NCBI GenBank assembly: GCA_965249725.1 | Contig: CBDFMQ010000002.1 | Location: forward strand, 2,048,001 to 2,112,000 | Source: Longimicrobiales bacterium | GTDB lineage: Bacteria; Gemmatimonadota; Gemmatimonadetes; Longimicrobiales; Gaopeijiaceae | Reading direction: 5' to 3' | Length of the DNA: 64,000 nucleotides | Shown: positions 1,294 through 64,000 of the stretch, piece by piece | Layout of the letters: every line of letters starts with the position of its first letter | How positions within the stretch are numbered: position 1 is the first letter of the stretch | Made by a program: the position numbers and the translations under genes | Notes under the pieces: generated by a model | Told to the model about the DNA's origin: nothing | The model's input: only the letters and a program-made list of their open reading frames with translations | Databases searched by the model: none

Positions 1294-1929
1294 ATGACAC
1301 ATACCTTGGCGAGGCCCCGAGAGGAACTCGCAAATGCCCTGAGTCATGGTTTGGGTCTCGTCCTGGCTATAGCGGCGACGCCCGTGCTCATTATCAGTGC
1401 CGCGAGTCGCGGCAGCGCTGCCAACATCGTCGGCAGCTCCGTCTTCGCCGCGACCATGGTGCTCCTCTACCTTTCGTCCACCTCGTATCACGCGGCACCG
1501 AAGAGCCGACTCAAGGATCGCCTGAGGAAACTGGACCACGCCGCTATCTACCTCCTCATCGCCGGCACCTACACGCCCTTCACTTTGGGAGTCCTGGGTG
1601 GCCCGTGGGGTTGGACCCTGTTCGGCCTGGTCTGGGGCGCGGCGACTATCGGTGTCTGCGAGAAGCTGATCTCGGGAATCCGCTATCCGCGCCTTTCCAC
1701 CGTCCTCTATCTGGTCATGGGGTGGTTGGTCTTGATCGCGATCCGCCCCCTCGTGCTCCATGTGCCCCCGGAGGGCATCGGCTGGCTCGTCGCAGGAGGC
1801 CTCTCCTACACGGTCGGGACATTGTTCTACACAGCCCACCGTCTCCCCTACAACCACCTGATCTGGCACTTGTTCGTACTGTCCGGCTCGACTTGCCACT
1901 TCTTCGCAGTGCTGTGGTATGCCACGTGA
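1294..1929 (+). CDS. Hemolysin III / PAQR family membrane protein (TrhA-like)
   Basis: EELANALSHG, SSTSYH, LDHAAIYLLIAGTYTP and HLIWHLFV motifs; start placed at ATG 1294. Confidence 0.9.
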   Translation: MTHTLARPREELANALSHGLGLVLAIAATPVLIISAASRGSAANIVGSSVFAATMVLLYLSSTSYHAAPKSRLKDRLRKLDHAAIYLLIAGTYTPFTLGVLGGPWGWTLFGLVWGAATIGVCEKLISGIRYPRLSTVLYLVMGWLVLIAIRPLVLHVPPEGIGWLVAGGLSYTVGTLFYTAHRLPYNHLIWHLFVLSGSTCHFFAVLWYAT

Positions 1930-1962
1930 CGCCGGGGTCCCGCTAGGAGGATAACGAGCGAT

Positions 1963-2556
1963 ATGCGCAACATCGTAACCGTCTCGGCCACGAGCCGGCC
2001 CGACAACTACACGTCGATGGCCCTCGCCATCGTAAACGACGAACTCGCGAAGCGAGAGGTGTCGTCGACTTCGTTCGATGCCCGTAATCTGTCCTTGTCC
2101 TTCCCTGGACACCCACCCACCGAGGACGCTGAGCGGCTGAGATCGGCCGTAGAAGAGGCGTCTGGAGTGGTAATCGCGACCCCGGAGTATCACGGGAGCT
2201 TCTCCGCCATGGCCAAACTGGTCATCGAGAATCTCGGCTTTCCGTCCGTGTTGGCCGGTAAGCCGGTAGCCCTGGTCGGGGCCGCCGCCGGACGAATCGG
2301 CGCCATCAAATCTCTGGAGCAGCTGCGCGGCGTCTGTGCACACACGGGTGCGCTCGTCCTACCGGGAAGCGTATCGGTAGCCGGCGTTCAGGCCGCGTTC
2401 AACCCAGAAGGCCAATGCACGGACGAGGGCGTGGAGGGAGCGCTACGAGGGATTGCGGGGGCTCTGCTCGAGTTCATCGAGCACTACGTTTGCCCGAAGT
2501 ACGCGCTGGAGGCGATGGTCCGTGGAGAGGGTCGACCTTGGACTTCGACGCTCTGA
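1963..2556 (+). CDS. NADPH-dependent FMN reductase family protein
   Basis: AGGAGG RBS; ATPEYHGSFS and GKPVALVG motifs. Confidence 0.9.
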   Translation: MRNIVTVSATSRPDNYTSMALAIVNDELAKREVSSTSFDARNLSLSFPGHPPTEDAERLRSAVEEASGVVIATPEYHGSFSAMAKLVIENLGFPSVLAGKPVALVGAAAGRIGAIKSLEQLRGVCAHTGALVLPGSVSVAGVQAAFNPEGQCTDEGVEGALRGIAGALLEFIEHYVCPKYALEAMVRGEGRPWTSTL

Positions 2557-2596
2557 ACCCCGTGATACTCTCCTTGCAGGGAGACACGCTGCGGCC

Positions 2597-3250
2597 ATGA
2601 GCGTCGGGCGACGATGGAGCTTGGCATGGAGCTTGGCATGGGGTTTGGCCCAGATCGCGAGGCTGGCCGCTGCGGTCGTCATTACGGCCACCGCGACGAC
2701 CCAGGGACTGTCCGGGCAGGAGCGCCAGGAGCTGGTGGTCTCTGATTCGGTCGGCCTTCGTACTCCCCCAACCATCTCACCCCAGAGTGGAAGTTCGGGC
2801 ACCGAGGTCACTGTGAGCGCCATTCACCTGCCTGCCATCACACCGGTACAGATTGGTGTCGGCGCGATCGGGACGGGCTTCGAGGTGCTTGATCAGCTGA
2901 TGACCAGTCCAGAAGGCGAGATCACGCATACGGTCCAGGTTCCGCGATGGGCCACCCGAGACCGGTCCCACGTCTTCATCGTGCTCGACATCTACTTTCG
3001 CCCGCTGTCCATGTCTGGTCCGTTCCACGTCACGGACCGCAACGGCCTCGTTTCAAGAGCCGGTCGCGTCATGACTCGCGACTCCCAGTGTGTGACGATG
3101 CTCGGCGGAGACGATCAGTTGTACTCGCTGACGGGAGATCTCAGGGGACTGCGCCCGGACGACGAGGTGATCGTGGAGGGAGGGTTGGCCGAGAACTCGC
3201 CGTGCGATCAGGGCGTTGCGTTGGACGTGGTGCGGGTCAGGCGACCGTAG
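2597..3250 (+). CDS. Hypothetical secreted protein (Ig-like part plus OB-like C-terminus with a Cys pair)
   Basis: Signal-like N-terminus from ATG 2597; co-directional with flanking genes; function not recognised. Confidence 0.6.
   Translation: MSVGRRWSLAWSLAWGLAQIARLAAAVVITATATTQGLSGQERQELVVSDSVGLRTPPTISPQSGSSGTEVTVSAIHLPAITPVQIGVGAIGTGFEVLDQLMTSPEGEITHTVQVPRWATRDRSHVFIVLDIYFRPLSMSGPFHVTDRNGLVSRAGRVMTRDSQCVTMLGGDDQLYSLTGDLRGLRPDDEVIVEGGLAENSPCDQGVALDVVRVRRP
2615..2650. repeat. 12-bp tandem repeat x3 (TGGAGCTTGGCA, third copy degenerate)
   Basis: Seen directly; encodes WSLA-WSLA-WGLA. Confidence 0.85.
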
Positions 3251-3291
3251 GTGGGCATCATCTGCTCATCCCCATCCCGGGAGTAGCCTCC

Positions 3292-3888
3292 ATGCTCATC
3301 AAGCAGGCTACTCTCGAGGGCGTAAAGGAGGGCCGAGTCACCCTGGCGTTCAGGCGCTGGCAGCGGCCCACGGTCAAGACCGGGGGGACGCTCCTGACGT
3401 CGGCAGGCCTCATCGCCATCGATGCCGTCGATGCCGTGGACCTCGACACGGTGACGGAACCTGAGGCCGTGGCCGCAGGCTTTGTGGACCTGGAGACCCT
3501 ACGGGCTACCCTCCAGCAGCGGGGCACAGGTCAGGTGTACCGGATCGCGCTGCGCCTGGCCGGACCGGACCCGAGGATCTCGCTGCGACGGCAAGTCCCG
3601 GACAGCCCCGCAGAGTTCGAGGGATTACGGACACGCTTGGCCCGCATGGACGCGGCCGCCAAGGCGGGACCCTGGACGCGTAAGGTGCTGTCTCTCCTCG
3701 AGCAGAGGCCGGCCGTGCGCGCAGGTGATCTCTCCCTCGAGATGGGGATGGAGAAGGACCGCTTCAAGGCCAACGTGCGGAAGCTCAAGAGACTGGGCCT
3801 GACCGAGAGCCTCGAGGTGGGATATCGACTCTCCCCCAGAGGCGAGGCCGTGCTACGCTTCCTCCAAGAAACGGAACCAGCGAGGTGA
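3292..3888 (+). CDS. ASCH-domain protein with C-terminal winged helix
   Basis: GRVTLAFRRWQRPTVKTGGT ASCH-like start; FKANVRKLKRLGLTESLEVGYRLSPRG wHTH end. Confidence 0.75.
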   Translation: MLIKQATLEGVKEGRVTLAFRRWQRPTVKTGGTLLTSAGLIAIDAVDAVDLDTVTEPEAVAAGFVDLETLRATLQQRGTGQVYRIALRLAGPDPRISLRRQVPDSPAEFEGLRTRLARMDAAAKAGPWTRKVLSLLEQRPAVRAGDLSLEMGMEKDRFKANVRKLKRLGLTESLEVGYRLSPRGEAVLRFLQETEPAR

Positions 3889-3907
3889 TGAAGGAGTTGC
3901 GCTGATC

Positions 3908-4258
3908 ATGACTCGATCATTGGAGTGGCGGTACCACCGCCCCGGCTGACAGAGCTGCAAACACACGCAGGAGTTTCTTGCGCAGAATGCCATCGGCGAT
4001 GGCGTCGTGCAGACCACGACAAAGGAGCCGCTGGCCGGTGCCGACGCCTTGTCCGTGCTCGAAGGGGTATCCGAGCTCTTTGTTGCGAAGGGGAAGACCG
4101 TCCTCCACTTCGACCTCGAGAATGAGCCACTCACGGACGATGAACTGCTCGCCCTGCTGTTGGGCCGCTCGGGGAAGCTCCGGGCTCCAACGCTCAAGAC
4201 CGGACGCCGGCTGCTGGTGGGGTACAATCGGGCGCTGCTCGAGACGACCCTGCTCTAG
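3908..4258 (+). CDS. ArsC/Spx-family probable selenoprotein (in-frame TGA at 3947-3949 read as Sec; UxxC)
   Basis: AAGGAG RBS at 3891; MTRSLEWRYHRPG-[TGA]-QSCKHTQEFL in frame with the 4007-4258 ORF carrying LRAPTLKTGRRLLVGYN (ArsC-family C-terminus); hairpin at 3966-3982. Confidence 0.8.
3966..3982 (+). promoter_or_regulatory. Candidate bacterial SECIS hairpin for the ArsC-like gene
   Basis: CGCAGG-AGTTT-CTTGCG stem-loop with a G near the loop start, beginning 17 nt after the UGA. Confidence 0.55.
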
Positions 4259-4272
4259 CGGATGTCGAGTCG

Positions 4273-4346
4273 CTACCAGCCGCCGCAAGCCTGCAGGGCG
4301 ACCATCAACGCGAGCGTCGACAGCCGTTTGAACCAGAGAGCACCAT
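4273..4346 (-). pseudogene. Possible remnant of a lipoprotein gene (signal peptide only)
   Basis: GGAGGT RBS and ATG at 4346; after a shift in the CTCTCT run it reads WFKRLSTLALMVALQACGG-W-stop (lipobox LQAC). Confidence 0.3.
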
Positions 4347-4483
4347 GATCACCTCCGCTCAAAGGCCCCGTTGATGCGTAGGCGGGCTCCCTTAAGATCG
4401 CACATTCCGGTACTGGCGCCGAGAGCCGCGCCTGCCCACGTTCGGCCTGCAGAAGCAGTTGAACCCGGAGAAGTGCCAGGCCA

Positions 4484-5777
4484 ATGAAGTACCCGTCCCA
4501 CGCACCGCATCCTGCCGCCCTCTCGCGGCGGCGTTTCCTGAAGGCGACGGGGACCGGAATCCTCGGCTTTTCCGCGTTCGGATGCGACGTGGGTACGCCC
4601 CCAGCGACGGATCGGGCTCGGTCGGCACTCACACGGCCCACGGGTCTGGACGACGCGGCCTGGGCCCATGTGAGGGAGCAGTTCATCCTGGAGCCGGGCG
4701 TGGCGTATATGAACAACGCCAGCCTGGGCATGCCTCCCGGCGTCGTGGCGGAGGCCGTGGCGGCCGGGTACGAAGCGATCTCCAAGGAGCCTCTCCACGG
4801 CAAGCACGACCTCCAAGACGAGATCGCACAGCGGGTCGTCCCCGGGCTCGCCAGCCTGCTCGGGGTGACTCCCGGTGAGGTGGCGCTGACACGGAACGCC
4901 ACGGAGGCGCTCCATCTCCAAGCGGTGGGGCTCGACCTGAAGCCGGGCGACGAGGTGATCTTCACCACGCAGGAGCACCCAGCCGGCCTGAGGCCTTGGT
5001 TGTTCCGTGCAGAACGGCACGGAGTCCAGGCCACATCCATCTTCGTCCCGAGCCCCCTCGAGAGTGAAGACCACGTGGTTCGGCTTTTCGAGCAGGCCAT
5101 TACGCCCCGCACACGAGCCATCGCCTTTTGCCATGTGACCCGGGGCGGGCACCGCTACCCGGTGAGGCGACTGGCAGAAATGGCCAGATCACGCGGATTG
5201 CTCAGTCTCGTGGACGGCGCCCAGGCCTTGGGGCAATTCCCGATCGACCTGCACGATCTCGGGTGCGATGCCTACTCGGCGAGCCTTCACAAGTGGCTCC
5301 TGGGCCCAGTCGGCACGGGGGTCCTCTATGTGCGGGAGAGCGCCCGCGCCCAGATACGATCGGCCTTCGCCCACGACGCGACGACGGACGCTCCGGCCCT
5401 CGCCCCCCCGGGCACCGCGGACTTCCCTCTTCGGGCCGGCATCGGCGCCGCCCTCGACTTCGTGGAGGCCATCGGGCTGGACAATGTGGCGAGTAGGGCG
5501 CGATATCTGTCTGACTACCTGAAGACGCAATTGTCCGACTTGGGGGGGGGTCACCCTATTGAGCGGGACCGCGCAGATGTCATGCCCAGGCTCCACGATC
5601 TTCGAGATGGAGGGGGTAGACGCGATGGCCTTGGTCCCGGTCATGGACGAGGAGCACTCGATCCATATAGACGAGCACCAACGCGACGGACACGATGCAA
5701 TCCGCGTTTCGACACATATCTACAACACCACGGTCGAGATCGACCGCCTCGTAGCAGCGCTCGAGGCCCAGACCTGA
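4484..5777 (+). CDS. Tat-exported class V PLP aminotransferase (isopenicillin-N-epimerase/cysteine-lyase-like), frameshifted in a G9 run at 5542-5550
   Basis: SRRRFLK Tat motif, AFGC lipobox, YMNNASLG, VDGAQ, SLHKWL; the C-terminus (IRVSTHIYNT) continues in the 5559-5777 ORF. Confidence 0.85.
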
Positions 5778-5786
5778 GGAGGACCG

Positions 5787-6038
5787 ATGCCGATCTACGA
5801 ATACTCATGCGAAGAGTGCGAACACCAGTTCGAAGAGTTGGTGCGGGGCGACGAAGTCCCCCAGTGCCCCTCGTGCGGGAGCGAGCAGCTCGAGCGGCTC
5901 ATGTCCCTTCCACGGGTTAGTTCGGAGTCCACGAGGGCCTTGAGCATGAAGGCCGCAAAGAAGAGGGACGCGGGACAGGCAAACGACCGCATGCACGATC
6001 GGCTGCACTACGAAGAGAGCCACGACCGGCACGGCTGA
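5787..6038 (+). CDS. FmdB-family zinc-ribbon protein
   Basis: MPIYEYSCEEC...CPSCGS; GAGGAGG RBS. Confidence 0.9.
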   Translation: MPIYEYSCEECEHQFEELVRGDEVPQCPSCGSEQLERLMSLPRVSSESTRALSMKAAKKRDAGQANDRMHDRLHYEESHDRHG

Positions 6039-6057
6039 CCGGAACGGGAGCAAGAAC

Positions 6058-6510
6058 ATGGACCCGTCCTCAGCGTCTTCGTCCCGTACCGGCCTTGCCG
6101 CTGCACTCTATCTCAGGCTAGCCCTGGCGACGGCCTTTCTCTCCGCGGTCGCCGACCGTTTCGGGATCTGGGGTGACCGGGGTGACCCGGGTGTGGCGTG
6201 GGGGAACTTCGATCAGTTTCTCAGCTACACGGCGTCGCTGCTTCCATTCTTGCCGCCAGCCGGGGTAACCGCCATCGGATGGACGGCGACCGCCGCCGAG
6301 ATCGTCCTCGCTATCGCCCTGATAGTCGGGTTCAAGGTCCGGGCGGCGGCGGCCGGGAGCGGTATACTGCTCCTGGGCTTCGCTCTCGGAATGGTGCTGG
6401 GTGACGGTCCGAAGCCCCCCCTCGACGCCTCGGTGTTCACTGCGTCGGCGGGTGCACTCCTGCTCTACGCGTATCCGCACAGCTATCTGAGCGTGGACGG
6501 AGGCGGTTGA
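6058..6510 (+). CDS. DoxX-family membrane protein
   Basis: LRLALATAFLSAVADRFGIWG...WGNF, several hydrophobic helices. Confidence 0.8.
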   Translation: MDPSSASSSRTGLAAALYLRLALATAFLSAVADRFGIWGDRGDPGVAWGNFDQFLSYTASLLPFLPPAGVTAIGWTATAAEIVLAIALIVGFKVRAAAAGSGILLLGFALGMVLGDGPKPPLDASVFTASAGALLLYAYPHSYLSVDGGG

Positions 6511-6648
6511 GCCATGCCGGACCGATCGCATCATCTACGGTCGCTGCGATCTCGGTCGGCGTCGTCGTGCTCCTCTCGCTCGGTCCGAGCACCCCTGTCA
6601 TCCTCTGCCGTTGGCGAAGACTCGAGGTAGGCCTGCGCCGCTCCGTGC

Positions 6649-6816
6649 GGATTTCCCGGGGCGGAGGATCTGGGTAACATGTTCCAGTTCAAGCGGGATT
6701 TCGAGGAGTCCTACTGCGGGGCCAGGGACCTGGACCGGGCGCGCGGGCTGAATCCGGAGCTCCAGACGTTGTCCCAATGGCTGGCCGCAAACGGAAGCCA
6801 AATCCCTATCGACTAG
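6649..6816 (+). pseudogene. 3' remnant of an NmrA/HSCARG-family gene
   Basis: GFPGAEDLGNMFQFKRDFEESYCGARDLDRARGLNPELQTLSQWLAANGSQIPID-stop matches NmrA-family C-termini; no Rossmann N-terminus upstream. Confidence 0.7.
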
Positions 6817-58689: not shown

Positions 58690-59045
58690 TAGATGAGTTC
58701 CATAGCTTCCGCCATGCCCACCAGCCCGCGCAGCCGCTCGGCTTCAGCCGTGACCACGCACCGTCCCAACGCGGTGATCGCATAGTACCTTCGCCGCTGA
58801 TCGTCCAGATCAGGCGCGGGACGCCGATCCGTCTCGTCCAGCAGTCCCTTCGAACGGAGCCGTTGGAGAACTGCGTAGAGGTTGCCTGGAACCAGCCGAA
58901 TCCGGCTCTCCGTACGTTCGGCGATTTCGGCAACGATGCCATATCCGTGCAGCTCACGGCCGGCCAGGGTCAGGAGTACCATGAAGTCCACCGGCTTCAG
59001 CGGAATCAGATCCTCGACGTCGTGGGATTCGATCTCTCTTGTCAT
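58689..59045 (-). CDS. PadR-family transcriptional regulator
   Basis: ELHGYGIV, GNLYAVLQRL, RRRYYAITALG; abuts the permease start. Confidence 0.9.
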   Translation of the reverse strand: MTREIESHDVEDLIPLKPVDFMVLLTLAGRELHGYGIVAEIAERTESRIRLVPGNLYAVLQRLRSKGLLDETDRRPAPDLDDQRRRYYAITALGRCVVTAEAERLRGLVGMAEAMELI

Positions 59046-59122
59046 GGCGGCCGTTCCTGGAGTGAGTCCGTTCGCTTCCACTGTACGGAGATCCAGTATA
59101 CTTAGTTTCAGCATACTCGAAT

Positions 59123-59722
59123 TCAGATCTCGAGTACCGCACCCTCCGGACCGACATTGTGGATCTCCGTCAATCCCAGGAACGAGCGCTGACCCCAGCA
59201 CCCATGGATATGGCCGCACACGACCAGGCTTGGCTCCGCACGCTCAATCGCCTCGAGGACGGCACGGCTCCCCAGATGCGCTCCTCCTCCGGCCTCGTCG
59301 ACGTGCCCGTACGGAGGCGAGTGGCTCACCAGGACGGCGTGCGAAGGGCAAGCCTCGAGCATCTCATGCGCTTCTTGCTCACTGAGGTCGAAGCTCCAAG
59401 AGCCGAAGGGGGTGGCGGGGATACCGGCACCGATGCCGAAGAAGTCGACACCGTCGATGCTCACGCCGCCGCCGTGCAGCACGTGGCCCGCCTCCCACCC
59501 GCGGCAAACCTCCCGCAGCTCCGCGTCGGACTCGCCGTTTCCGGGCACGAGCACCGTGGGACGCGCGATCTCCCGTAGGATATCCATCACGTCCTCGATG
59601 CCTCCGCGCTTGACCGCGAAGTCCCCCGCCCCGATGACCACGTCCACACTATCCGAGCGCTCCACGATGGACCGGGCCGCCGCCTGGTCGCGGTGCAAAT
59701 CACTGAAAGCCAGAAGCCTCAT
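59123..59722 (-). CDS. Calcineurin-like metallophosphoesterase
   Basis: SDLH, AGD, PGN(GE), SHSPP, GHIH. Confidence 0.9.
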   Translation of the reverse strand: MRLLAFSDLHRDQAAARSIVERSDSVDVVIGAGDFAVKRGGIEDVMDILREIARPTVLVPGNGESDAELREVCRGWEAGHVLHGGGVSIDGVDFFGIGAGIPATPFGSWSFDLSEQEAHEMLEACPSHAVLVSHSPPYGHVDEAGGGAHLGSRAVLEAIERAEPSLVVCGHIHGCWGQRSFLGLTEIHNVGPEGAVLEI

Positions 59723-59813
59723 GGCTTCAACCTCTTCTCGATTCGGTCCGGGAGCGGGGCGTCCCTAAGTGTCGCCAATGATCCTTCCCGAATCCAGCGG
59801 TGCCGAGGGACCG

Positions 59814-60023
59814 TCAGAGCGAGAGCGGGGATCTACCAACCTGCCATCGCCTCCAAATCAGATAGACGGCAGGGATGACCACGAGGGTGAGAACGGTCGT
59901 ACTGATCATCCCCCCCACCATTGGGGCCGCGATGCGCTTCATCACGTCCGATCCAGCACCGTGTCCCCAGAGGATGGGCATGAGGCCCACCGTGATAGCC
60001 GTAACCGTCATGACGACGGGACG
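59814..60023 (-). pseudogene. cusA: 3' remnant of a CusA/CzcA heavy-metal RND permease
   Basis: RPVVMT...[42 protein letters not shown], the last two TMs of CusA; similarity stops near 60023. Confidence 0.85.
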
Positions 60024-60048
60024 TTGATAGGAATCGGACCGAAGATGC

Positions 60049-60080
60049 TTGACCTTGGAGTGTACTCCAGGCTTTAGTTT
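60049..60080 (+). promoter_or_regulatory. MerR-type (ZntR-like) promoter/operator
   Basis: -35 TTGACC, 20-bp spacer, -10 TAGTTT; dyad TGGAGT-GT-ACTCCA in the spacer. Confidence 0.85.
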
Positions 60081-60158
60081 ACGCTTATGGTCGAGCGAAG
60101 ACTCGGCCGGGGCGTATCGTTCGGACGTCCCCAACGCGGCGCAGCAAGGAGGAATCCG

Positions 60159-60338
60159 ATGAAACAGCAGGCCTACTCGCTTTGTCCGGAGTGCACGGCG
60201 TGTCCGGAGGTGACGTTTCTCGAGGACGGCAAGGTCAGCATTGGTGAGGCACCGAACCTCGTTACCCTGACGCGGGAGGAGTGGAACGTCCTGGTTCGCC
60301 TCGTGCGCTCCGGCATGGTCGCGGAGTCACATGGCTGA
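60159..60338 (+). CDS. 59-aa CxxCxxC protein, first gene of the metal operon
   Basis: [28 protein letters not shown]...; overlaps the next gene. Confidence 0.75.
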
Positions 60339-60705
60339 ATCCCGCGCCGCGGCTTCGTCCGCGCTGGTCGCGGCTTTCGGGACTCTCGTCTGCTGTGCTC
60401 TGCCGTCGCTCCTAGTCCTGCTCGGCTTTGGATCTACGGTCGCTGCGGCGGTCTCGGCTGCTCCCTGGCTCGTGGTTTTGTCTCAGAACAAGGCGTGGGT
60501 ATTCCTCGCGTCCGGTCTGTTGATCATCGGGAGTCGAGGGTACTCCGAGTACGTCGTGCCTCGCATCGTCCCGGAGGGGGCCACGTGTCCGCCCGCGCTC
60601 GGGCGGTGGACTCGCGCCATCTGGTGGACTTCCGTCGGGGTGTATGGTGTTGGATTCTTCGTCGCTTTCGCCCTCGGGCCCATCCTGATGAGGCTCGAAG
60701 GCTGA
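60331..60705 (+). CDS. MerT/MerF-like metal transport membrane protein
   Basis: TLVCCALP vicinal Cys in TM1, three TM helices, loop Cys (ATCP). Confidence 0.75.
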   Translation: MAESRAAASSALVAAFGTLVCCALPSLLVLLGFGSTVAAAVSAAPWLVVLSQNKAWVFLASGLLIIGSRGYSEYVVPRIVPEGATCPPALGRWTRAIWWTSVGVYGVGFFVAFALGPILMRLEG

Positions 60706-61562
60706 TGCCTCTTTCCGTCCTGAGGTGCCTTCTCGGTATGACCGCCGCCGCGGCGATCGTGGCGCCGCCCTTGTCCTCCCAGGGACACGGGCCAGTGTAC
60801 GGGCTCTCTACGCCGACGCTTGGGCGCGGCGGGTGGAGCCTCGACGTGGCGGGCATGGGACGGTTCATCGAGGGAGGTCGGATGGCGATGATCCGCCCCA
60901 TGCTCAGCTTCGGAGTAACCGAGGACCTCCAGGTATCGGTGTCGATTCCCGTCAGACTGGAACGCGATTCGGTGACTCCTGGGGTGCGGGCCTTTACAAG
61001 GATGCCAGCCTCTCAGGACGTCGAGATGATGGTGGGCTGGCGGTTGCAGAGACGGGGCACGGGTGTGGGTGCCCGACGAGAGACGACGGTCTGGTTGGCT
61101 GCAGACGTACCGACGGACGGGCGTCGCGAGGGACTCGAGACGGCACCCAGTCTCTTTGGCTCCATCGTCACCGGGTACGCTTCGCGTTCGGCCTACCTCT
61201 GGTTGGGAGGGGCCTACGAGCGCTCACTCACGGCCGGACTGGAACATGACCGTGCGGGGGACGTCGCGATGGGAAGCCTGGTCATCGGCTATCGACCGCC
61301 GTCGTTTCGCGGAGACTACCCATCTGCGGACTGGCGTGCCTTCATCGAAGTCGTGGGAGAGGCCGTACGGCGCGACCGGGTCGGAGGCGTCGAAGTGGCG
61401 GACAGCTGTGGCCGACAGCTATACGGCGCCCTCACCCTCCTCGGCCTCTACGGCTCCTGGGGACTGGCCGGCGGGCCGGCCTTCCCCCTATATCAGTCAC
61501 TGAACGGGAATCAATCGGACGAAGGCGTGCGCCTGGCTTTGAACGCGACGTTCTGGTTCTAA
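60705..61562 (+). CDS. Secreted, probably outer-membrane beta-barrel protein
   Basis: TGATG coupling; signal peptide; amphipathic strands; ends LALNATFWF. Confidence 0.65.
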   Translation: MPLSVLRCLLGMTAAAAIVAPPLSSQGHGPVYGLSTPTLGRGGWSLDVAGMGRFIEGGRMAMIRPMLSFGVTEDLQVSVSIPVRLERDSVTPGVRAFTRMPASQDVEMMVGWRLQRRGTGVGARRETTVWLAADVPTDGRREGLETAPSLFGSIVTGYASRSAYLWLGGAYERSLTAGLEHDRAGDVAMGSLVIGYRPPSFRGDYPSADWRAFIEVVGEAVRRDRVGGVEVADSCGRQLYGALTLLGLYGSWGLAGGPAFPLYQSLNGNQSDEGVRLALNATFWF

Positions 61563-61581
61563 CCCAAGGAGAGACTTGCTC

Positions 61582-62079
61582 ATGTACAAACCTATCCTTC
61601 TGGCACTCACTGCCGTTGCGCTGCTATCGGGAGCGGCGGAAGCCCAGCTTCGCTCAGTCGAGCAGTCGATCTATGGGATGGACTGAAGTGTCTGCGCCCA
61701 CGCCGTGAGCGTGGCAGTGAAGAAGCTCGACGGGGTCGAGAGTGCAGACGTCAGCCTGAACGAGGGTCGTGTCAGCGTACAGTTCTCTTCCGAGAACGGG
61801 GTGACAATCGACCAGCTTCGCCGAACGATCCGGGATCAGGGCTTCTCACCGAGGGACGCGATGCTGACCCTGTCGGCGGTGATCGAGATGCGTGACGGGG
61901 CACTCGTCGCGGTGGTTCCTGGCTCCGGAGCGGCCTACACGCTAACGGCCGAAGAGTCGATCCGCTCTCGGCTGACGAGCGCCACCGGTGGCACGGTCAT
62001 CGTCCGGGGACGCGTGGAGGCGGACGAGAACGATGAGACTCCCACCTCACTAGCCGTAACCCTTGTGGGTGGTGGGTGA
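61582..62079 (+). CDS. Secreted HMA/MerP-like probable selenoprotein (TGA at 61684-61686 read as Sec) with an extra C-terminal domain
   Basis: AAGGAG RBS; signal peptide MYKPILLALTAVALLSGAAEA; IYGMD-[TGA]-SVCAHAV in frame with KKLDGVESADVSL (HMA fold, GMxCxxC). Confidence 0.82.
61692..61717 (+). promoter_or_regulatory. Candidate SECIS hairpin for the HMA gene
   Basis: CCACGC-CGTGA-GCGTGG stem-loop extended by CTG/CAG; G at the second loop position; 17 nt between UGA and loop. Confidence 0.6.
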
Positions 62080-62095
62080 TGGCAGAAGGTCTCCC

Positions 62096-62491
62096 ATGAG
62101 AATCGGTGAGTTGGCTCGGCAGGCTGGGGTGACGCCCGATGCGCTTCGCTTTTACGAGCGCTCCGGGCTCATCTCACCGCCTCCTCGCACCCCGGGTGGA
62201 TACCGGAACTACGGGGCCGTCGTCCTTGAGGACCTGAGCTTCATTCGTAAGGGACAGGCCCTTGGCCTCCGCCTCGCAGAGATCCGTGAGGTGATGGCGA
62301 TGACGGCGGACGGGCAGGTGCCTTGCGCACATGTGCGCTCAGCGGTCGTGGCTCGGCTCGAGGAAGTGGAGCGCCGGATCTCCGAGCTTCGGGCGCTACG
62401 CACGGCGTTGAAGAGTGCGTTGACCCGTCTCGACACGACGGGTCTCTCGGCGCCGGGGTGTCGCTGCGCCGCGATCGAGGGGCTCGACTAG
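62096..62491 (+). CDS. MerR-family heavy-metal regulator (ZntR/CadR-like)
   Basis: MRIGELARQAGVTPDALRFYER HTH; Cys at the start of the dimerisation helix (VPCAHV); C-terminal CRC. Confidence 0.92.
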   Translation: MRIGELARQAGVTPDALRFYERSGLISPPPRTPGGYRNYGAVVLEDLSFIRKGQALGLRLAEIREVMAMTADGQVPCAHVRSAVVARLEEVERRISELRALRTALKSALTRLDTTGLSAPGCRCAAIEGLD

Positions 62492-62539
62492 GAGCACACC
62501 CAACCAGTTGCGACTCGACTGACTCTGACGCGGCCGGCC

Positions 62540-62571
62540 TTGACCCTGTACTACGCCACAGGGTTTACTCT
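62540..62571 (+). promoter_or_regulatory. Second MerR-type promoter/operator (CadR/PbrR-like dyad)
   Basis: -35 TTGACC, 20-bp spacer, -10 TACTCT; dyad ACCCTGT-N8-ACAGGGT. Confidence 0.8.
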
Positions 62572-62576
62572 TGTAT

Positions 62577-63166
62577 ATGACCAAGACCGAAACGCTCACG
62601 ATCGGTCAGCTGGCGGCTTCGGCCGGTGTGGGACGCGAGACGATCCGGTACTACGAGCGGAAGAGCCTCCTCGAGGAGCCTCCGCGTTCGGCTGCTGGAT
62701 ACCGCCACTATCCTCCCGATGTCCCTCGGCGGCTCCGCTTCATCTGTCGCGCGCAGGAGTTGGGATTCACGCTGGCCGAGATCTCGGGCCTCCTCGATCT
62801 GCGCGTGGACGAAGTCTCCGCGTATGCCGCGGTGGAGACGAGGGCGCGCGAGAAGCTGGAGGTTGCTGTGAAGGAATCGATGAAGGCCACGGTATCGGGC
62901 GTCGGCGGTGTCTTGGCAGCGACAGGGTCCGCGCTGTGCTGCGCCGGACCGGTGGTGGCTGTGAGCTTGGGCGTTTCGGGTGCCGGACTGTCGGCTTTCG
63001 AGCCTTTCAGGCCCTACTTCCTCGGTGCGACCGCCGCCTTTCTCGCGACCGCGCCGAGGGGTTCGTCACGTTCGATACAACCATGACATCGGTGGCCGAG
63101 ATCGTAGCTGAGTTGAGACGGATGACGGCCTTCAGCGCGACCGAGCGACCGGATTCAGGAGGCTGA
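62577..63166 (+). pseudogene. Collapsed merR-merT-merP(HMA)-like cassette with two internal deletions
   Basis: MerR N-terminal part to about 62862, MerT N-half (ALCCAGP, FEPFRPYF) from GTG 62868 to about 63046, then an out-of-frame HMA tail (DRAEGFVTFD...) to 63166. Confidence 0.82.
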
Positions 63167-63168
63167 AG

Positions 63169-63453
63169 ATGAATACCCCACGCATCGAGCTGGTCTACTT
63201 CGAGGGCTGCCCGAACGCTTCGCAGGCAAGGGAGAACATTCGGGCCGCCGTTGAAGCCTCCGGAAGGCCGCTCGAGTGGTCCGAGTGGGACCTTATGGCG
63301 GAGTCAACGCCCGAAGACCTCCAGCGCTACGGTTCGCCCACAGTGTTGATCGACGGTCAGGATGTAACTGGAGAAGGCACCGGCGCGGTCGCGATGGCCT
63401 GCCGGGCCGACGGAGCCCCTTCGGTCGCCTTGATCGCAGAGAGACTACAGTAA
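63169..63453 (+). CDS. Thioredoxin-like protein of mer-type clusters
   Basis: AGGAGG RBS; IELVYFEGCPN, YGSPTVLIDG, MACR. Confidence 0.78.
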   Translation: MNTPRIELVYFEGCPNASQARENIRAAVEASGRPLEWSEWDLMAESTPEDLQRYGSPTVLIDGQDVTGEGTGAVAMACRADGAPSVALIAERLQ

Positions 63454-63737
63454 CCGTCGTCGAGTTCGGAGCCCTGAGTGACTCAGGCCAAGAGGATGGT
63501 AAGTCATCAAGAACGCCCTAACTCGCGAGTTGCCCCGGGTCGGACCCCTCGATGCCCACGGGCCCGGGCGCGATAGTTAGCCTGGTAGACGTGAGTTCGG
63601 CAATGCGGTTCGCCTAATCGCGCCGCTAGTAGGACGGAGGACTCGGAGGCCAGCCCTTGTCCTTGCATGATCAGGATCGCAACGTCGTTGGTTGCTACAG
63701 GATCTCTCCCATCGATCTGAAACCCGAGGGCAAGCCC

Positions 63738-64000
63738 ATGAATATCCAGCGATGCCGAAGCGTGTGGACGCTGGGCGCTGTGTTGATTACTGCCCTCGCC
63801 GGCGACGCCGGGGCGGCGATGCAACAGAGTCCCAAGGATGAGGTAGCCTCGGTGGTCGGCGCCTTTCATGTGGCTCTCGCGGCAGGCGATTCGGTCGCCG
63901 CGCTGACCCACCTGGCCGATGACGTGGTCATCCTGGAGGGCGGTGCGGTCGAGGACAAGGAGCACTACCGCTCCGGACACCTGGCCGGGGACATGCGCTT
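63738..64000 (+). CDS. Secreted NTF2/DUF4440-like protein, N-terminal part (runs off the window)
   Basis: Manual translation: signal peptide, then VGAFHVALAAGDSVAALTHLADDVVILEGG...HYRSGHL. Confidence 0.72.
   Translation, partial: MNIQRCRSVWTLGAVLITALAGDAGAAMQQSPKDEVASVVGAFHVALAAGDSVAALTHLADDVVILEGGAVEDKEHYRSGHLAGDMR

Follow-up and report, generated by a model that had tools for sequence, protein, structure and literature searches.

The unit described here lies near the end of a 64,000-nucleotide stretch of DNA (the window) from a Longimicrobiales bacterium of the phylum Gemmatimonadota (assembly GCA_965249725.1, contig CBDFMQ010000002.1, positions 2,048,001 to 2,112,000). Five tightly packed genes, g1 to g5, follow a MerR-type promoter on the plus strand, between 60049 and 62491. 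To judge by its sequence and that of its relatives, the unit fits best among mer-type systems, as a variant of their transport arm that here stands without MerA. What seems to be new is a transport arm of this type that combines an outer-membrane channel (g3) with a selenocysteine (Sec) ligand in a secreted HMA protein (g4), next to a probable distant relative of MerT (g2), and whose metal and direction of transport we infer. The best explanation, which we hold with modest confidence, is an intact and metal-inducible envelope relay that would carry a soft divalent metal inwards.

The gene g4 (61582-62079, plus strand) encodes a protein of 165 amino acids with a signal peptide, an HMA domain carrying the motif GMD-U-SV-C and a C-terminal beta domain of about 70 residues, the UGA at 61684-61686, in the first Cys position of the metal-binding motif, being read as Sec. 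The host genome (95.8% complete, 3 contigs) holds the machinery for such a reading: tRNA-Sec (68 bits), selA (560), selB (325) and selD (375) all score above their curated cut-offs. A hairpin of the selenocysteine insertion sequence (SECIS) type, CCACGC-CGUGA-GCGUGG, begins 12 nt past the UGA, at 61698-61714 on the plus strand. In an alignment of 42 distinct Sec-type sequences, namely the window and 41 related loci, 96.8% of the cells of this hairpin are paired, three of its six pairs show compensatory changes, and none of 500 shuffles reaches the observed level of covariation; the local fold at this place has a z of -3.0. The hairpin is not present in g4 sequences that carry Cys instead, and a scan of 59000-64000 against Rfam, which holds no family for it, returned chance-level matches only.

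Related loci were collected as the finds of a g3 profile in species-representative genomes, the other genes being located by tblastn and on maps. At the motif position, 42 of these 74 loci have TGA (Sec-type) and 31 a Cys codon (Cys-type), g4 being missing from the last one (L107). The alternation follows the ability to make selenoproteins: selA is found above its cut-off in 39 of the 42 Sec-type genomes versus only one of the 31 Cys-type genomes. Because of the Sec machinery, the covariation of the hairpin and a U/C alternation that tracks selA, the UGA is, as far as sequence comparison can tell, a genuine Sec codon. The first-pass annotation of the window, which was made from the letters alone, had read it in this way and had called for Sec genes elsewhere in the genome and for U/C alternation at the site; both have now been found. 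Contigs from four public runs, belonging to four studies, cover the stretch, and no change at 61684-61686 is among the differences listed for them. Two other readings of the codon were considered and rejected: a private nonsense mutation is contradicted by the Sec machinery, the U/C alignment and the covariation of the hairpin, and a genome-wide change of the code by the use of TGA as the stop codon of g1, g2 and g4. The selD gene of the host genome (G000:C1:279375-280298, locus L013) also has one in-frame TGA, and because of this, SelD is probably itself a selenoprotein.

Two Sec-type loci from Verrucomicrobiota (L085 and L095) are out of register with the hairpin alignment and form, slightly farther downstream (by a few bases), a hairpin that differs in sequence and in L095 keeps the same CGUGC loop. 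In a tree of g3, for which 70 of 75 rows were used after those with fewer than 240 aligned residues had been dropped, a Sec-type clade stands beside a well-supported clade of 31 rows, made up of 28 Cys-type members, the two Verrucomicrobiota Sec-type members and L107. The minimum number of U/C changes on this tree is three, one of which rests on a long-branch row. Because the Verrucomicrobiota U forms nest in the Cys clade and carry a different, shifted hairpin, the comparison points to at least two independent changes.

The HMA domain of g4 is clear from Pfam (PF00403, 48.6 bits against a cut-off of 24.8), and the protein also matches the models for the N-terminal part of ZntA. It lies below the NCBIfam cut-offs for CopZ, for the UxxU metal-binding (seleno)protein (NF041115, 47 versus 95 bits) and for the MerT/CopZ fusion selenoprotein (NF045683, 17 versus 375). 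A structure model with a predicted local distance difference test score (pLDDT) of 90.9 consists of the beta-alpha-beta-beta-alpha-beta fold of HMA domains followed by a beta domain at residues 96-165. The HMA part resembles the domains of CopZ, MerP and ZntA in the PDB, with template modelling (TM) scores of 0.83-0.91 on the target; a Foldseek search with the whole model gave PDB matches for this part only and none for the C-terminal domain. As the first-pass annotation had expected, standard annotation truncates the gene: 12 of the 13 database homologues inspected begin inside or just past the CxxC motif, the other being a full-length Cys form, and the remaining seven of 20 database matches are 120-125 amino acids long and cover 71-75% of the query. 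One database homologue, P0007 (171 amino acids), shows an internal duplication of the g4 remnant found in the sister genome G001.

The association of g4 with g3 is nearly constant, g4 lying directly after g3 in 73 of the 74 loci. The gene for g2 is present in 57 loci and a gene of the MerR family in 49. About half of the 17 loci that lack g2 are cut by contig ends, and the rest belong mainly to Acidobacteriota with ample flanking sequence. The order of the genes is variable, either g2-g3-g4 or g3-g4-g2, and the loci are spread over about ten phyla: Gemmatimonadota, Acidobacteriota, Myxococcota, Verrucomicrobiota, Pseudomonadota, Balneolota, Rhodothermota, Bacteroidota, Ignavibacteriota and Elusimicrobiota. 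The module is sporadic, and within the phylum of the window it is rare, occurring in nine of 401 genomes in a sample of Gemmatimonadota. A tblastn comparison for conserved synteny had been proposed in the first-pass annotation, and when it was made, the trio of g2, g3 and g4 emerged as a core that is kept across phyla. Synteny is thus conserved, the literature searches gave no described mer variant that corresponds to the operon, and the UGA is not a private nonsense mutation in a genome lacking Sec machinery; on each of these points the opposite finding would have spoken against the proposal of a distinct selenocysteine operon.

The second member of the trio, g3 (60705-61562, plus strand; 285 amino acids), has a signal peptide and a C-terminal FWF, and matches no family in Pfam or NCBIfam. 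Its 967 homologues (E<=1e-3) are all unnamed or called 'hypothetical' and come mostly from Gemmatimonadota. The AlphaFold model is a 12-strand barrel (pLDDT 87.8), for which Foldseek finds the outer-membrane proteins FapF (5o68, E 4.5e-9, TM 0.66), the COG4313 channel (4rl8, E 9e-7) and NanC (2wjq). The likeness to these three lies in the predicted fold and the size, with TM scores of 0.53-0.66, and stops there: the identity is 10-13%, there is no common family model, and the gene contexts are unrelated. According to this model, g3 is an outer-membrane channel of an unannotated family. Throughout the family the mature N-terminus starts with His-Gly-Pro, and a number of Met residues vary little or not at all (residues 28-30, 51, 62, 66, 100 and 189 of the window protein). 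These residues are candidate soft-metal ligands of a plug or pore.

For g2 (60331-60705, plus strand; 124 amino acids), which has a CC pair in its first hydrophobic helix, 458 representatives are found at E<=1e-3. Ten of 22 family members match Pfam MerT at E<=1 (best 2e-8), and in a profile-profile comparison with hhalign the family aligns with the MerTP profile at a probability of 86% (E 4.7e-6), with the CC motifs in register. Invariant in the family are C21, C22, P25 and C86, the last in the loop ahead of the last helix. By these matches, g2 is probably a distant relative of MerT and a divergent inner-membrane member of the MerT superfamily.

The mini-protein g1 (60159-60338, plus strand; 59 amino acids), predicted to be cytoplasmic and carrying the motif CPECTAC, stands apart from the trio. 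It has 18 homologues, of which 13 were aligned, with a motif SLCPxCxxCP whose three Cys are invariant; no Pfam or NCBIfam family is reached above cut-off, and a search of the ESM Atlas returned only unnamed clusters at 0.89, under the level that counts. Apart from the window, the gene is present in four of the 74 loci (L046, L049, L065 and L069), and all four of these genomes have MerA. The first-pass annotation had drawn a relay in which this CxxCxxC mini-protein took part; the gene is real, and its distribution makes it a lineage-specific accessory and not a part of the core.

The regulator g5 (62096-62491, plus strand; 131 amino acids) belongs to the MerR family, with Cys77, His79, Cys122 and Cys124, and exceeds the Pfam cut-offs of MerR_1 (PF13411, 67 bits), MerR (PF00376, 62.5) and MerR-DNA-bind (PF09278, 63.9). 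Its best NCBIfam matches, all below cut-off, are ZntR, CueR, MerR and CadR; against the ZntR models it reaches 94.8 of 167.95 bits (TIGR02043) and 100.9 of 143 (PRK09514). It is likely the activator of the promoter at 60049-60080 on the plus strand, which was read from the sequence and whose dyad was found by search. The -35 element TTGACC (60049-60054) and the -10 element TAGTTT (60075-60080) are separated by a spacer of 20 nt, and inside it lies a perfect dyad, TGGAGT-GT-ACTCCA, at 60056-60069. A standard promoter scan, with spacers of 16-18 nt, finds no promoter at the operon, as is to be expected for the 20-nt spacer of the MerR type, and its sole 'terminator' match was rejected since it is the operator dyad itself. 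Behind the promoter the genes are closely spaced: g1 and g2 overlap by 8 nt, g2 and g3 by one, the stop TGA and the start ATG sharing a base, and the gaps are 19 nt between g3 and g4 and 16 nt between g4 and g5.

The operator nearly matches that of zntA in E. coli K-12, including the 20-nt spacer. E. coli PzntA reads TTGACT CTGGAGT CG ACTCCAG AGTG TATCCT, and the window reads TTGACC TTGGAGT GT ACTCCAG GCTT TAGTTT; both are of the form TTGAC-YTGGAGT-NN-ACTCCAG. The resemblance to the ZntR system extends to the sensor Cys near position 77-79 and to the N-terminal HMA domain of E. coli ZntA, whose motif GMDCAAC has the same GMD-C/U-xx-C pattern as g4. The two systems differ in that ZntR ends in CC...H...C and g5 in CxC, and in that none of the genes regulated in the window is a P-type ATPase. 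CxC-tailed regulators like g5 occur in eight related loci, and an operator of the zntA type lies upstream of the module in 10 of the 74 loci (four phyla, Gemmatimonadota, Verrucomicrobiota and Pseudomonadota among them). By their Cys residues, the MerR-family sensors that adjoin the module are of at least three kinds: those with C77...CxC, to which g5 belongs; those with C77-x34-C-x8-C, which is the spacing of MerR and PbrR; and a group without C77. The promoter and the five genes agree in every feature and position with their description in the first-pass annotation, including that of g5 as a regulator of the divalent-metal type, which its Cys77 and the PzntA-like operator bear out.

The same annotation had proposed an undescribed metal-handling operon without MerA, and this calls for a change, in that the unit does have ties to mer systems. 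In 11 of the 74 loci (L050, L051, L054, L055, L066, L071, L072, L080, L081, L086 and L091), true MerA is encoded within 5 kb, as a match to TIGR02053 above 454 bits with a C-terminal SCCA, and in L055 and L066 the order merR-merA-g2-g3-g4 is found on one strand. Eight more 'MerA-like' neighbours were rejected as other flavoprotein disulfide reductases without the C-terminal CC. Anywhere in the genome, MerA is found in 35 of 73 module genomes (20 of 42 Sec-type and 15 of 31 Cys-type). In the sample of 401 genomes of the phylum, five of the eight other module genomes have MerA versus 36 of the 392 module-free ones, and in four of these five it lies on the same contig, 2-20 kb away. MerA is therefore about five-fold commoner in module genomes than in module-free ones; since relatives are not independent, this is a tendency and not a test. 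It is because MerA adjoins these 11 loci and is enriched in module genomes that the module is here regarded as a variant mer transport arm. Some genomes are flagged as unpublished, namely those of L044, L045, L049, L054 and L071 among the 42 Sec-type loci (with L054 and L071 two of the 11 MerA-linked loci and L049 one of the four g1 loci), G276 among the five MerA-bearing module genomes of the phylum sample, and G056 among further relatives; dropping them alters no conclusion. Beside MerA, small HMA proteins matching the UxxU model are encoded directly upstream of it in L050 (1278-1670), L054 (7189-7578) and L091 (1846-2295); such proteins also occur in G043, G045 and G049, and relatives in other genomes have two in-frame TGAs.

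Compared with MerR, MerT and MerP of Tn501 and Tn21, the module has the same components: a periplasmic HMA protein with a two-chalcogen site, a small inner-membrane protein with CC in helix 1 and a Cys in a later loop, and a MerR-family activator acting on a long-spacer promoter. There are also differences. Unlike MerP, g4 has Sec as its first ligand, an Asp before it and the extra C-terminal domain; the module always includes a dedicated outer-membrane barrel, for which no counterpart was found in the described mer operons; and the operator of the window is of the zntA and not of the merO type.

The relay that seems the best explanation would run as follows. In the presence of metal, g5 would activate the ZntR-type promoter. 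The g3 channel would admit the soft divalent metal into the periplasm, where g4 would capture it on a selenolate-thiolate pair (GMD-U-xx-C). By ligand exchange the metal would then reach the CC pair of g2, which would pass it on to the cytoplasm. There g1 would likely be the first acceptor in this lineage and, where it is present (about half of the module genomes), MerA would reduce Hg(II). As the host genus has no MerA, the module would here end in sequestration or in some other sink. The proposal draws on the established analogy of MerP and MerT and on the parts described above; the metal, the inward direction, every hand-over, the role of g1 and any contact between g3 and g4 are inferred. 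In the window, the metal would be a soft divalent one. Hg(II) is the likeliest candidate, and Cd(II), Pb(II) and Zn(II) are possible.

Several observations weigh against such a relay. A search for merA elsewhere in the host genome found none above the curated cut-off (best 323 versus 454 bits), and two other genomes of the genus have none either; 38 of the 73 module genomes are without detected MerA, many of them being incomplete metagenome-assembled genomes. In laboratory mer systems, the import of Hg(II) without MerA sensitises the cells. A selenolate site binds more tightly than the CC pair that it would feed, which sits uneasily with a simple downhill relay inwards. The likeness to MerT and MerP is incomplete in the window itself, since g2 has no match to Pfam MerT (PF02411) and a single Cys in the loop where most relatives carry a pair, and g4 is below the MerP cut-off (TIGR02052, 39.1 versus 92.55 bits). 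As to the metal, Zn, Cd or Pb is suggested no less than Hg by the operator and the GMDC motif. Copper-type P1B ATPases (TIGR01511 above cut-off) occur in 15 of the 74 loci, and CsoR-like genes in three, in L079 directly upstream of g2. Finally, in the sister genome G001 (L018, G001:C9, 1423-2156) only the 3' two-thirds of g4 are left, 86% identical in DNA and almost directly joined to a second merR; g1 to g3, g5 and the 5' part of g4 have been lost.

A rival explanation is that the metal moves outwards or stays in the periplasm. The protein g4 would then scavenge a toxic metal, perhaps supplied by g2, and the metal would be held there or released through g3, as a pump-free counterpart of CusF-type detoxification. 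It is established that activators of the MerR type respond to an excess of metal. The first-pass annotation had noted that the unit has no MerA, MerB or P-type ATPase, and Pfam and NCBIfam find none of them among the five products (the search for MerB having been confined to the unit); the lack of a reductase there and of MerA in the genome would suit protection in the periplasm. A Sec-Cys site would furthermore act as a thermodynamic sink and not as a donor, and the module is adjoined by efflux ATPases in the 15 loci mentioned above and by CusA in three of the 74. However, the unit contains no source of energy for export, MerT, the probable relative of g2, is a known importer, and the merR-merA-g2-g3-g4 operons of L055 and L066 fit an import for reduction. 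Outward or periplasmic protection is considered unlikely, though it is the most serious of the rivals.

The neighbouring copper-type ATPases and CsoR-like repressors could also mean that the metal handled by the module is a soft monovalent one, Cu(I) or Ag(I), instead of Hg, Cd, Pb or Zn. The group of adjacent sensors without Cys77 would agree with this, as would the several Met and one His that are invariant in g3. In the window, however, the sensor has Cys77 and the operator is PzntA-like, the HMA motif of g4 carries the Asp of ZntA-type sites, and module genomes are enriched in MerA; a role in Cu(I) or Ag(I) handling is judged improbable. Because of the copper-type ATPase and CsoR neighbours and the at least three kinds of sensor, one of them without Cys77, the metal may differ between lineages.

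A conserved array is found in Balneolaceae. In L081, L083, L087 and L090 (about 1400-6800), a copper-type P1B ATPase, a gene of 189 amino acids, g2, g3, g4 and a MerR-family gene follow each other on one strand; the 189-residue product is unnamed and lipoprotein-like (cluster c7). Because this array is conserved on one strand, it suggests that the module is there co-transcribed with an efflux pump. In L087 (8067-9488), L102 (9016-10353) and L106 (8126-9463), a unit of ArsR and MerTP is followed by a flavoprotein disulfide reductase that has no MerA-type C-terminal Cys pair and is below the MerA cut-off, the same place in L081 being occupied by true MerA. A non-canonical reductase of a mer-like operon is a possible reading of this protein.

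The island around the unit in the window is small, and its parts bear on the integrity of the unit. The C-terminal fragment of an efflux protein of the resistance-nodulation-division type (CusA/AcrB), about the last 60 residues, adjoins the start of the promoter (59814-60134, minus strand); it corresponds to positions 964-1019 of 1021 of ACR_tran (E 5.7e-14) and is probably the scar of the insertion of a metal island or of recombination. Downstream, in the region 62540-63086, a second MerR-type promoter (TTGACC, with the dyad ACCCTGT-N8-ACAGGGT) precedes an open reading frame that joins roughly the 100 N-terminal residues of a MerR, without the metal-binding Cys, to helices one and two of a MerT and soon meets a stop; in G001 the matching MerR is full length (131 amino acids). 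This fusion looks like a deletion-derived, degenerate mer remnant. At 63169-63453 follows a 94-residue thioredoxin-like protein in the Cys form, with 48.7 bits against the NCBIfam model 'DF family (seleno)protein' (cut-off 70); in L073, L084 and L101 the same domain forms one protein with a MerC-like membrane domain, encoded just upstream of the module. Otherwise, Pfam finds only housekeeping and no further metal genes in the 40-64 kb part of the window and in the 14 kb beyond.

A further rival is that the unit itself has lost its function here and survives as the decaying, orphaned remainder of what was once a larger mercury-resistance island. The CusA fragment that abuts its promoter, the fused and truncated merR-merT next to it, the persistence of no more than the 3' part of g4 in G001 and of nothing in G002 (same genus), the lack of MerA in the genus and the sparse occurrence in nine genomes of the phylum sample would all be in line with this. 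Yet the five frames are open, all residues that are invariant in the g3 and g4 families are present in the proteins of the window, g2 keeps its CC pair and C86, neither the SECIS hairpin nor the operator is damaged, and near-identical copies are found in contigs from four studies. A functionless remnant is the least probable of the alternatives, very doubtful in our view, and an intact relay for inward transport is still preferred.

A bolder form of this proposal goes beyond the window. Barrel, (seleno)HMA protein and MerT-like protein would together make up an undescribed and widespread envelope relay with its own entry channel in the outer membrane, independent of MerA or of a pump, in which Sec would have been acquired at least twice to speed the capture and hand-over of trace metal of the Hg(II) type. 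This remains tentative, and we would sooner doubt it than rely on it.

As regards earlier work, the Global Ocean Sampling survey (PMC2398784) predicted 'MerP' and MerT-like proteins that contain Sec, and MerT-family selenoproteins are named in a 2022 preprint (10.1101/2022.07.06.499078). The survey's 'MerP' and the NF041115 and NF045683 proteins share with g4 the use of Sec instead of Cys in an HMA or mer-type site; g4 is distinguished from the known metal-related selenoproteins by its single Sec (UxxC), its signal peptide, its C-terminal domain and its tie to a barrel gene. In the accessible portions of two reviews (PMC9312934 and PMC13188914), the UxxU metal-binding protein, a MerT-type protein and a P-type ATPase are given and no PF00403 protein with UxxC; the corresponding portion of the table in the latter, of 2026, has neither a PF00403 nor a 'MerP' entry. 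A survey of mer genes (PMC8261052) mentions, in the text that could be consulted, neither an outer-membrane component nor selenocysteine. Full-text searches of the literature, supplements aside, gave no description of an operon of barrel, HMA and MerT-like protein, in accordance with the first-pass annotation, to which the architecture was unfamiliar; as a whole, the operon, the Sec codon, the conserved synteny and the type of regulator are supported, and the view of the unit has to be changed as regards its relation to mer and the place of g1.

Nearly every database entry for the selenoprotein g4 has a wrong gene call, so that it is overlooked when mer genes or selenoproteomes are surveyed. 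Fodinibius salsisoli, Novilysobacter longmucuonensis and Pseudomarimonas arenosa are cultured strains with the Cys-type module, whose function can therefore be tested directly. To our knowledge, the current models of how bacteria handle mercury and soft metals include no dedicated step at the outer membrane, and they treat MerP and MerT as a relay of cysteines only. To this picture the module, as read from sequence and predicted structure, would add a conserved outer-membrane channel and, in the phyla that use Sec, a selenolate ligand at the site of capture.

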